A stretch of DNA of 64,000 nucleotides from Spirochaetaceae bacterium (lineage in GTDB: Bacteria > Spirochaetota > Spirochaetia > DSM-2461). The position numbers are program-made. Positions 3,001 through 6,000 of the stretch are shown piece after piece. Position 1 is the first letter of the stretch. Each line of letters opens with the position of its first letter. Where the stretch lies: NCBI GenBank assembly GCA_051531975.1, contig JAOPTT010000018.1, positions 1 through 64,000 of the forward strand, written 5' to 3'.

Positions 3001-6000
3001 TCTGGAAATCATAAGGTTATTGAAGAGTGGCGAAATAAAAAGCGCTACGAAAAAACCTTAAATTACAGACCGGATCTTTTAAAAGATTAGGGTCGAAGGA
3101 TAAATAATGGATATCATAAAAGCAGTAGAAGCTACACAGTTAAAAGAAAACGCTGAAAACTTCAATGTTGGAGATACTGTTAAAGTATATTACCGAATTG
3201 TTGAAGGAACTACGGAAAGGGTTCAGCTTTATGAAGGTTTAGTAATTGCTAAAGCAAATGCTGGTCTTAGAAGAACATTTACTGTTAGAAAAATTTCATT
3301 CAATGTTGGTGTTGAGAGAGTTTTCCCTTTACACTCACAAAGAATTGAAAAAGTCGAAGTTACTAGAACTGGTAAGGTTCGAAGAGCTAAACTTTACTAC
3401 ATTCGAGAAAGAGTTGGTAAAAAAGCTAAAGTTAAAGAGCTTATCAGAAAAAAAGCTAGATAATTTTGAAATCTTTAAAACTACCCAATTGGGTAGTTTT
3501 TTTTTGCAAAAAAAAAGCATGCTAAATATATTTCTATAATTAGCATGCTTTAGTAGGTTTTATATTATTACTCTATAATAGCAATTATATCCTGCATCTG
3601 TACAATTAAGTGATCATCACCATCAATTTTGATAGCTGTACCAGCATATTTATCATACATTACTTTATCTCCCACTTTCACAGTTATAACATCAGTATCA
3701 TCACCAATTGTAACAACGATACCCTCCTGTGTCTTTTCTTGTGCTGTTTGTGGTATAAAAAGTCCAGATGCTGTTCTAGTCTCAGCTTCCTCTGTTTTAA
3801 TTAATACTCTGTCTGCTAAAGGTCTAACTTTCACAATTATCTCCTCTTATATAGTTAAAAACTATTTACAATATAATCGATAAAACTGCCATGGGCAATA
3901 TTTTACTAGTTTTTTTCTTATTTATTTGTCTTTTCATTAAATAAATATTATTTTTTTATTATTAGAGGTAATTAATACAAATGGAAGATTTTAAGATTTT
4001 TAAAACGGTGCAAATTAAAAAGTATTGTACTGAAAAGAAATGTAAAATAAAAACTAAAACACCAGAGTGGGATATGATAAATGATCTGATAATTGATTAT
4101 TGGTCAGATTTAATTGCAACTGGTTATATAAATAATAAAACAGAACAAGAGAAGGTTCATATTTTTTCTTCCTTAACCATAATATTCCCTTATACTACAA
4201 TTCCTTCTACGTGGTTAGATGGTATCGATTATGTGGATTTTAAATCATATCAGATATAGTGGGTTATACTGACCCAATAAATAAATAATAAAAATAAAAT
4301 AGGTAATAATGACACATATTAACAGTAATTAAAAATTATTGAGTAATTTTGACTCATCACTGGATTAATCACTCTTCTAAGTCCCTCAAAGACCATTTAA
4401 AAGTTGGCACATCTTTTGCATTACTATTCGTATTAGTTCCTATGGAGGATACAATGGTTAAAAACAATGATGAAAACATATTAGCAATATATTTAGAAGA
4501 AATTAATAGAATACCTTTATTAACAAGAGAAGAAGAAGATGACATAGCAAGAAAAGCCCTGGGTGGTGATTCCGATGCTAAAGATAAACTTGTTACTTCT
4601 AACCTACGATTTGTAGTAAACGTAGCAAAAAAATATAGAAATAATGGAATACCACTAGATGATATAATAAACGAAGGTAATTTAGGGCTTATGACTGCTG
4701 TAGATAAATTTGATCCAGATAAAGGGTATCATTTTATCTCTTATGCTGTTTGGTGGATCAGACAGTCCATTTTGAAGGCAGTTTGTGAAAAATCTAGATC
4801 TATTAGATTACCTTTAAATAGAGCAAATGAATTAGTTCAAATTCAAAAGGCTAAAAAAGAAATCTCTTCAATTACAGGAGAGCATGTTGATACTAAAGAA
4901 GTTGCAGCTATATTAGGAATGGATAGTCATAAGGTGCAAGAATTACTAGATATTTCCCAAGATTTAATATCTTTAGATACACCTATTTCAGATGGTGCTG
5001 ATTCTGGGAACTTAGGTGATATTGTTGAATCTATGTATAAATCACCTGAAGAAGAAGCTTTAGATCACTCATTAAAAGATAGTATTAATACACAACTTGA
5101 ACTTTTAAATCCAAAAGAATCTTTAATTATCAATCATAGATTTGGATTAAATAATTTAGAACCTCTATCACTACGAGCAATTGGAGATCAACTAGGTGTT
5201 ACTAAAGAAAGAGTAAGGCAGATTGAAAAGAAAGCACTTGATAAATTAAGAAATTTTGTAAGTAGTGATTCACTACAAGCTTTTATCGCATAAAAAAAAG
5301 TTTGACTTCCCTCATAAAGAATATAACTATTAGTTATAATAGATAAGGGGAAGTAGTTATGGAGAGTAAAAGAGTATATTTCTTTGGTAATGGTTCTGCA
5401 GAAGGTGCAGCATCTATGAAACACCTGTTAGGTGGTAAAGGTGCAAATATAGCAGAAATGACAAATTTAGGTATACCAGTACCTCCAGGCTTCACAATAT
5501 CTACAGAGGTTTGTAGAGAGTACTCGGAAGGTAATAATGCCTATTCTGATTCAGTTACAAAAGAAATTGAAAAACATATAGTAAAATTAGAAGAGATAAC
5601 TGGTAAAAAGTTTGGAGATGATAAAGCTCCACTTTTGGTATCAGTTCGTTCAGGTGCTGCAGTATCAATGCCTGGAATGATGGATACAGTTCTTAACCTT
5701 GGTATGAATTCAAAGTCTGTAGTTGCCGTAGGTAAAAATAGTGGCAATCCAAGATTTGCATGGGATTCATATCGAAGATTTATTCAGATGTTTGGAGATG
5801 TGGTTATGGGTGTTCCTCATAAACTATTCGAAGAAAAATTATCTGGAGTAAAGACATTCCATAACTATGAAACAGATACAGACTTAACTGTTGAAGACCT
5901 TAAAGATGTAGTTACACAGTTTAAAGATGTTTATAGATCTAAAACAGGTCAGGATTTTCCAGAAGACCCAATTAAGCAACTCTGGTCTGCCATAGGTGCT

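Follow-up and report, generated by a model that had tools for sequence, protein, structure and literature searches.

The 64,000-nucleotide window analysed here, the start of a contig from the 5.46-Mb genome of a Spirochaetaceae bacterium, carries a gene for a short sigma70-family protein that we name SigX (Table 1). Sigma70 regions 1.2, 2, 3 and 4 are recognised in the 279-residue protein by Pfam and region 1.1 is absent, in agreement with the description of the gene (as g04415) in an earlier note on this DNA. The lack of region 1.1 and a score that does not reach the RpoD cut-off set SigX apart from the group 1 factors, and the RpoD of this genome is encoded on contig C15. Like the proteobacterial RpoS (TIGR02394) and RpoH (TIGR02392), SigX is an alternative sigma70-family factor, but it scores below the cut-offs of both: its best NCBIfam label is RpoS (TIGR02394, 271 against 378.7; NF004207, 262.6 against 394), and the RpoH model gives 177.8 against 323.1. 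Two other in-frame starts were considered and ruled out, TTG at 4349 because it lies above the promoter and ATG at 4442 because it overlaps the Shine-Dalgarno sequence.

Table 1 Features of the SigX locus in the window.
Feature	Coordinates	Strand	Remarks
groES	3568..3834	-	NCBIfam GroES models; divergent neighbour of SigX
groES promoter, TTGCCC...TATATT here	3870..3899	-	Family consensus CTTGACC-N17-TATATT; candidate SigX-read promoter
92-aa gene	3981..4259	+	Conserved, no known family; stop codon abuts enhancer box 1
Enhancer box 1 (putative), TGGGTTATACTGACCCA	4260..4276		Palindromic TGTGTCA-N3-TGACACA type; 19.9 bits, best matrix score in the 5.46-Mb genome
Enhancer box 2 (putative), TAGGTAATAATGACACA	4300..4316		13.5 bits; 40 bp after box 1
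Enhancer box 3 (putative), TGAGTAATTTTGACTCA	4340..4356		18.1 bits, ranked fourth genome-wide; 40 bp after box 2
Sigma54 -24/-12 promoter (predicted), TGGCACATCTTTTGCA	4405..4420	+	49 nt before the SigX ATG; kept in 172/179 class genomes
Shine-Dalgarno, GGAGGA	4444..4449	+	Sequence
SigX (name given here), sigma70 family, 279 aa	4454..5293	+	Start ATG 4454
ppdK	5359..8013	+	TIGR01828 above cut-off; conserved, downstream of SigX

The surroundings of the gene are also conserved. The divergent orientation of groES and SigX recurs at 152 of 154 loci, and the 92-aa gene, which has no match in Pfam or NCBIfam, was matched by tblastn at 63 loci. Within flanks of 1.5–2 kb, which bound these counts, groES accompanies SigX at 141 of 187 loci, ppdK at 106 and the 92-aa gene at 51, so that the earlier statement that orthologues sit at the same place holds. 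The ppdK gene probably has its own sigma70-type promoter, as TTGAC-type elements are visible upstream of it in orthologous loci.

The sigma54 site and its conservation

The predicted promoter TGGCACATCTTTTGCA has its GG at 4406-4407 and its GC at 4418-4419, ten bases apart; the surrounding sequence follows TGGCAC-N5-TTGC, and standard sigma54 geometry would place the start of SigX transcription at about 4430-4432. The window alone contains two sigma54 matches with at most one mismatch, against a mean of 0.71 in shuffled sequence, and 14 of 100 shuffles reach two. Because this count is no higher than chance, the weight of the site rests on its position and its conservation. Over the whole genome, TGGCAY-N5-TTGC occurs 29 times, compared with 11, 5, 15, 4 and 5 times at wrong spacings. 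A called start lies downstream of 26 of the 29 sites, in line with the earlier observation that such sites mostly precede genes; from inspection by eye we take these genes to include nifH, nifE, nifV, two amtB-like and two pspA-like genes. The genome also encodes one rpoN and 14 strong activator ATPases, as had been reported.

For the class as a whole, 201 genomes were searched and loci were analysed for 196 of them (without G072 and four Borrelia-type genomes); SigX is present in 181 of the 196. After two loci had been dropped for insufficient upstream sequence, a sigma54 site with at most one mismatch was found within 130 nt of the start at 172 of 185 class loci, 133 of these sites being perfect. 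This corresponds to 172 of 179 genomes and 46 of 48 families, the related genomes in these counts not being independent of one another. Controls were near zero (2/185 on the reverse strand, 0/185 at wrong spacings, 11/3700 in shuffles), and the site before g04415 is thus not only real but better conserved than the earlier note had claimed. The median distance to the start codon is 25 nt, and of the 176 class sites with up to two mismatches, 166 retain both the GG and the GC. Seven of the 179 class genomes lack the site. Three of the four SigX loci of the T. denticola-like genus g34 read TAGCAT, with the first G of the GG lost.

The distribution of rpoN is less tidy. It was matched in 196 of the 201 class genomes, and two family searches gave no match in the other five, where the sites are kept nonetheless: G011, G043, G131 and G133, which are 88–94% complete, and G193, a one-contig Borrelia-type genome. 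Barring incomplete assembly, these five genomes weigh against a reading of the sites by sigma54; one Borrelia species has been reported to be without rpoN (PMC3162934). In genus g28, the DNA-binding domain of RpoN is the most diverged (E-values of 5e-11 to 5e-17), and the sites drift along with it, to GGGAAC, TGGAAC and TGGAAT.

SigX, SigY and the RpoS of Borrelia

In a tree of 510 sigma proteins, the short factors fall into three groups: SigX, a second that we call SigY, and a third. In the Borrelia-type genome G161, the RpoS gene, whose product is 93% identical to a named Borrelia protein, follows flgI-flgJ and precedes a PF04748 polysaccharide deacetylase gene and tsaD; the order flgI-flgJ-rpoS is also given for Borrelia in PMC1976401. 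This is the SigY locus (flgJ-sigma-deacetylase-tsaD), and SigX lies instead at groES/ppdK. SigX and SigY occur together in 95 of the 196 genomes, and in 94 of these 95 Borrelia RpoS is nearer to SigY than to SigX, with a median identity of 40% compared to 33%. Similarly, in five free-living-type genomes the best match of the G161 RpoS is the gene at the flgJ-tsaD place and not SigX. The clade of SigY and Borrelia RpoS is supported at 99/98 by a mixture-model tree of 57 rows, the bootstrap of which had yet to settle fully, and an AU test against a grouping of SigX with Borrelia gave p=0.007 on a 30-row subset from which the longest branches were left out. Borrelia RpoS and SigY are further united by the residues RKE in region 3.0 and GIS.ETVRQIE in region 4.2; at these places SigX has NRANE and TKERVRQ where Borrelia RpoS has RKE and SSETVRQ. 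The R121/K122 pair described in region 3 of Borrelia RpoS (PMC6719511) is likewise R,K in SigY and N,R in the SigX of the window, whose 4.2 helix is RpoD-like. Borrelia-type genomes have no SigX. On this phylogeny and gene order, SigX is the sister and not the orthologue of Borrelia RpoS, which belongs to the paralogue SigY.

The earlier note had read g04415 as an RpoS-like factor of a Borrelia-type cascade. On one reading of this, SigX would be the direct counterpart of the Borrelia gene, moved to another locus in that lineage. The two proteins do share an architecture without region 1.1, 35% identity and the same kind of promoter; furthermore, the window's genome has no closer gene at its flgJ locus, and the best NCBIfam label of SigX, though below its cut-off, is RpoS. 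This reading is already largely refuted by the presence of SigY at the Borrelia locus and its co-existence with SigX in the same genomes, as well as by the identities, the clade, the AU test and the shared residues given above. No sigma gene separates flgJ from tsaD in the window's genome, from which SigY is missing; the true RpoS orthologue was thus invisible to the earlier note. That a single gene had been translocated in the Borrelia lineage was also considered, since family f5 holds both gene orders, and was dropped because G126 has flgJ-deacetylase-tsaD without a sigma gene and because SigY is found beside SigX elsewhere.

The deeper relationships are less firm, and a single origin of SigX and SigY is tentative. 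The grouping of SigX with SigY has support of 88, and of 98/88 in the 57-row tree, where a long RpoH-like row falls inside it and outgroups are few; in the same tree the SigX clade stands apart from a Photobacterium RpoS-like fragment, the only one sampled. How Borrelia RpoS arose has been described as disputed (PMC6719511). Four long-branch sigma factors with the Borrelia gene order (families f5 and f11), two of which have a sigma54 site, fall outside SigY in a FastTree tree and were assigned to it by gene order only.

SigY has a sigma54 site of its own, at 96 of 98 class loci and at 7 of 7 Borrelia-type loci. By comparison, the site was found at 1 of 12 loci of the third paralogue and at 0 of 20 RpoD loci, where starts are poorly called and some loci truncated. 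The earlier claim that the site is absent from both RpoD and second-paralogue loci therefore stands for RpoD and fails for SigY. In 60 genomes of other classes of the phylum, picked for good matches, the site is present at 33 of 62 SigX loci and 27 of 28 SigY loci; among the 29 SigX loci without it are five of family f62 and those of the f78/f60/f71 group. Fifteen genomes of family f57 yielded just one match, with an E-value at the level that RpoD reaches elsewhere. Taken together, the sigma54 sites predict sigma54 control of a sigma70-family gene throughout the class and beyond it, so that the cascade would be no Borrelia speciality. A class-wide sigma54-to-sigma70 cascade had been proposed before, and this survives in the form of two genes, SigX and SigY, and not as one Borrelia-type branch.

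Putative enhancer boxes and the candidate activator

Motif discovery in the DNA above the SigX sites returned the palindrome TGTGTCA-N3-TGACACA, with a log-likelihood of 1279 compared to 79 for shuffled sequence, and above the SigY sites a different one, TGTA-N10-TACA (707 compared to 64). The three boxes of the window lie 65–145 nt above the sigma54 site. A box of at least 10 bits is present at 163 of 174 SigX loci, a count that does not change when each locus is scored with a matrix trained on the other families, and at 29 of 35 loci of other classes and 16 of 16 named loci. Two boxes are found at 105 loci, with a gap of 40 bp at 83 of them. The SigX box is rare at SigY loci (1/95), Borrelia-type loci (0/7) and in shuffles (1/174); conversely, the SigY box is present at 86 of 95 SigY loci, 9 of 174 SigX loci and none of the 7 Borrelia-type loci. 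Eleven of the 174 SigX loci lack a box, and the T. pallidum-like G152 has the sigma54 site with a box of only 8.4 bits. Of four sets of assembled RNA contigs compared with the G152 locus, two gave nothing and two gave short pieces at low depth. Elsewhere in the genome, SigX boxes are at chance level in four Borrelia-type genomes (3, 6, 2 and 4, against 3, 5, 8 and 3 for the reversed control) and in G152 (7 against 9). Near rrp2 itself, 13 of 15 loci have no box and two have weak single matches. The boxes at 4260-4356 had been overlooked in the earlier note.

Small genomes narrow down which protein might bind the boxes. Among 65 searched for activators, 13 (from families f16, f3 and f34) gave a single activator match, and all 13 retain the SigX site and a box. 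In all eight of the single-activator, box-bearing genomes that were checked, the activator is an orthologue of Rrp2, sharing a clade (95 SH-aLRT) with the sole activator of the Borrelia-type G161, which by PMC11109971 should be Rrp2. In four single-activator genomes of family f38 the SigX boxes are weaker and more distant. The rrp2 gene lies 4–8 kb from sigX in G003, G044, G069, G111, G113 and G126; in the window's genome the Rrp2 orthologue (C6:486168-487556) follows a kinase-like gene, is unlinked to sigX and is one activator beside 13 others. SigX is probably the original target of Rrp2. For SigY, a GAF-domain activator shows a matching distribution, occurring in 93 of 106 SigY genomes, 8 of 84 others and 0 of 11 Borrelia-type genomes, with the reservation that related genomes are not independent.

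In Borrelia, Rrp2 did not bind the 238 bp above rpoS, upstream DNA was not needed for activation, and no DNA site of Rrp2 was known (PMC1976401); the missing boxes of Borrelia-type genomes fit this non-binding. The Rrp2 of T. denticola has been called unstudied (PMC12070737). The recognition helix of Rrp2 is nearly the same in Borrelia (IGRKTLHNK compared to IGRKTLHRK), and yet box-like sequence is there at chance level, while in f38 and G152 weak or distant boxes go along with Rrp2-sized activators. This could mean that the sigma54 promoter is real and that a repressor, a nucleoid protein or an activator other than Rrp2 binds the boxes. We consider this unlikely, as bEBP sites share the position of the boxes (about 100–170 nt above the promoter), their tandem 40-bp phasing and their dyad form, and as the boxes persist in one-activator genomes and the rrp2 and sigX genes are linked.

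The boxes bear equally on whether sigma54 activates SigX at all. It might instead act at the site mainly as a brake, its closed complex stopping read-through from the 92-aa gene while sigX is transcribed from sigma70-type promoters. The 92-aa gene is co-oriented with sigX, no terminator-like site was found between the two, the sites persist in the five genomes without an rpoN match, and a long sigma70 transcript has been described for Borrelia rpoS too (PMC11109971). However, conserved enhancer boxes make sense solely with activation, the constant 22–30 nt to the start codon is a normal leader, and the Borrelia paralogue is activated by RpoN (PMC1976401), which makes a brake highly improbable.

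The proposed cascade and its output

Our preferred reading, to which we give a probability of about 0.8, is a sigma cascade of two steps that uses an enhancer of the ordinary kind, running Hk2-Rrp2-sigma54-SigX, in which SigX and SigY have been sorted by lineage. Bacterial enhancer-binding proteins act by DNA looping and ATP-driven opening of the sigma54 holoenzyme. By analogy, an Hk2-type kinase would phosphorylate the Rrp2 orthologue, dimers of which would bind the two or three conserved boxes at their 40-bp intervals, contact sigma54-RNA polymerase at 4405-4420 through a DNA loop and drive its opening. The SigX so made would redirect the core enzyme, with stress genes as the most likely targets. 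Ancestral spirochaetes may have had two sigma54-driven factors, SigX and SigY, with a separate box and probably a separate activator for each. The window's genome would have retained SigX and lost SigY. In Borrelia-type genomes SigY would have been retained as RpoS, and SigX would have gone together with both boxes. Of the two sigma54-driven factors, Borrelia now has only SigY, and most treponemes and the window's organism only SigX; the SigX cascade probably predates the one in Borrelia.

The closest known system is the Hk2-Rrp2-RpoN-RpoS pathway of Borrelia burgdorferi (rpoS is BB0771; PMC1976401, PMC11109971, PMC6719511). As with SigX, its output is a group-2-like sigma factor without region 1.1 and with a -24/-12 promoter; its activator is Rrp2, an orthologue of which is the likely activator of SigX. 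In contrast, SigX is a paralogue at groES/ppdK that Borrelia-type genomes lack, and it is preceded by tandem enhancer boxes, whereas Borrelia rpoS is activated by Rrp2 without an enhancer (PMC1976401). The SigX cascade thus appears, from comparative evidence, to be an enhancer-bearing variant of Rrp2-RpoN-sigma with a different output sigma factor, and the locus offers a 17-bp candidate site for Rrp2, a target gene and a lineage history. A COG-level survey of sigma54 regulons associated COG0568 sigma factors generally with sigma54 promoters, and found COG0533 (the tsaD family, the gene behind SigY) enriched in Spirochaetia (PMC12316311); unlike the present analysis, its text, in the parts available, names no spirochaete gene, paralogue, enhancer or activator, and its 11 supplementary files have no match to COG0568. 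The literature searched at abstract level described the cascade in Borrelia only, and neither a cascade in Treponema or free-living spirochaetes nor the SigX/SigY paralogy and enhancer was found in print within it; subscription papers on Treponema sigma factors, RpoS evolution and Hpk2-Rrp2 lay outside this scope.

An indication of what SigX may do comes from T. denticola. The published primers for TDE0937 (PMC2965109) map inside the SigX gene of locus L260, next to groES, with the forward primer exact and the reverse primer at one mismatch, and this stress-induced T. denticola gene therefore belongs to the SigX family. TDE0937 was induced together with chaperones, 2.8-fold by heat, 21.8-fold by oxygen and 14-fold by osmotic downshift, and was described as a possible global stress regulator; the available text of PMC2965109 gives no promoter, sigma54 link, activator or regulon for this SigX orthologue. 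Because T. denticola Hpk2 autophosphorylation is reported to be higher without oxygen (cited in PMC12070737) and TDE0937 rises with oxygen, the stress induction may use another promoter. A stress-induced orthologue is a further likeness of SigX to the proteobacterial RpoS and RpoH.

Genes that SigX might read were sought from the groES promoter. A matrix of this promoter scores above 12 at 145 of 154 groES loci, at 1 of 118 ppdK upstream regions and at 0 of 154 shuffles, and the groES loci without the motif include those of the long-branch SigX genomes G126, G152, G156 and G195. In the window's genome, among called genes, what we take to be the grpE-dnaK leader ranks first and groES sixth, groEL scores 5.2 bits, and lon and clp genes were not matched; the names of grpE-dnaK and the other chaperone genes are our own assignments, made from short motifs and by eye. 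A candidate CTTGAC-type promoter in front of groES and grpE-dnaK is reminiscent of RpoH regulons. No CIRCE element was found in this genome at up to three mismatches from the consensus. Among the matches listed in a metagenome scan with the exact groES promoter, 58 have a called downstream gene; 12 of these genes match the groES of the window, and no other recognisable chaperone is among them. The motif is close to the sigma70 consensus and may therefore simply be a strong RpoD promoter, and we treat the idea that SigX reads the groES and grpE-dnaK promoters as a lead and not as a result.

A bolder version of the cascade, which we put forward tentatively and regard as rather doubtful, is that SigX is the missing heat-shock or general-stress sigma factor of spirochaetes and reads CTTGACC-N17-TATATT, that the boxes are the true Rrp2 site and that the Borrelia cascade is a rewired remnant. 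If so, Borrelia would have lost sigX together with its boxes, and also the SigY box and the GAF activator of SigY. Such losses would leave Rrp2 firing rpoS from solution, which would explain the known enhancer independence, and the intact Hpk2-Rrp2-RpoN-SigX circuit of Treponema would control the core stress response. The T. pallidum-type gene adjoining groES is, by position and tree, a SigX orthologue, and from its position and locus number we take TP1012 to be the SigX gene of G152. The TP1012 protein has been detected in T. pallidum (PMC5015957).

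The SigY-linked activator and its putative box

The occurrence of one activator, which combines GAF, AAA+ and HTH domains, follows that of SigY, the SigX paralogue on the Borrelia RpoS side. We found it in 93 of the 106 genomes with SigY and in none of the 11 Borrelia-type genomes, and it is a candidate binder of the TGTA-N10-TACA box. The window's own genome, which lacks SigY, has a box of this type (20 bits) 77 nt upstream of a sigma54 site (contig C13, 173554-173647); the gene behind them is unrelated and membrane-protein-like.

Features and their coordinates
Feature	Location	Strand	Remark
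GAF-AAA+-HTH activator	L582:1078-2589 (genome G005)	-	occurrence follows SigY
92-aa gene	window:3981-4259	same orientation as sigX	conserved, no family
groES promoter, CTTGACC-N17-TATATT	window:3870-3899	-	strong conservation
rpoN cluster part	own genome, C13:132952-139060	-	receiver-type activator and kinase, then lexA-like gene

SigX copies and RpoN

The nearest SigX orthologue (L002, G121) belongs to the same genus, and its reading frame is interrupted near codon 33, which may be a true break or an error of sequencing. Additional SigX copies occur at L247 and L364 (G149), L292 (G052) and L540 (G098), and in each of these multi-copy genomes only one copy retains the sigma54 site. Upstream of the window's sigX, the 92-aa gene directly abuts the first enhancer box.

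In genus g28 (loci L056, L053, L047 and L271) the DNA-binding domain of RpoN is strongly diverged and the -24 element is altered to GGGAAC, TGGAAC or TGGAAT, and the two may have co-evolved in sigma54 specificity. Two family searches gave no rpoN match in either genome of family f12 (G011, G043), and both retain their SigX and SigY sites (L028, L018, L504, L505); the missing match may reflect a gap in the assemblies or a true loss. Orthologues of the activator in the window genome's rpoN cluster adjoin rpoN in G003, G005, G080 and G197.

Chaperone promoters and other sigma54 sites

Genome-wide, the groES promoter motif matched best in the grpE-dnaK leader, and no CIRCE element was found in this genome at up to three mismatches from the consensus. 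The motif is a candidate heat-shock promoter class of spirochaetes. The positions grouped with it in this genome are C20:112136 and the groEL leader on C24, the latter a weak match. A sigma54 site also lies upstream of an Hsp20-like gene, named by eye (C4:51374), and one precedes each of three chemoreceptor-like genes (C6:18324-24974).
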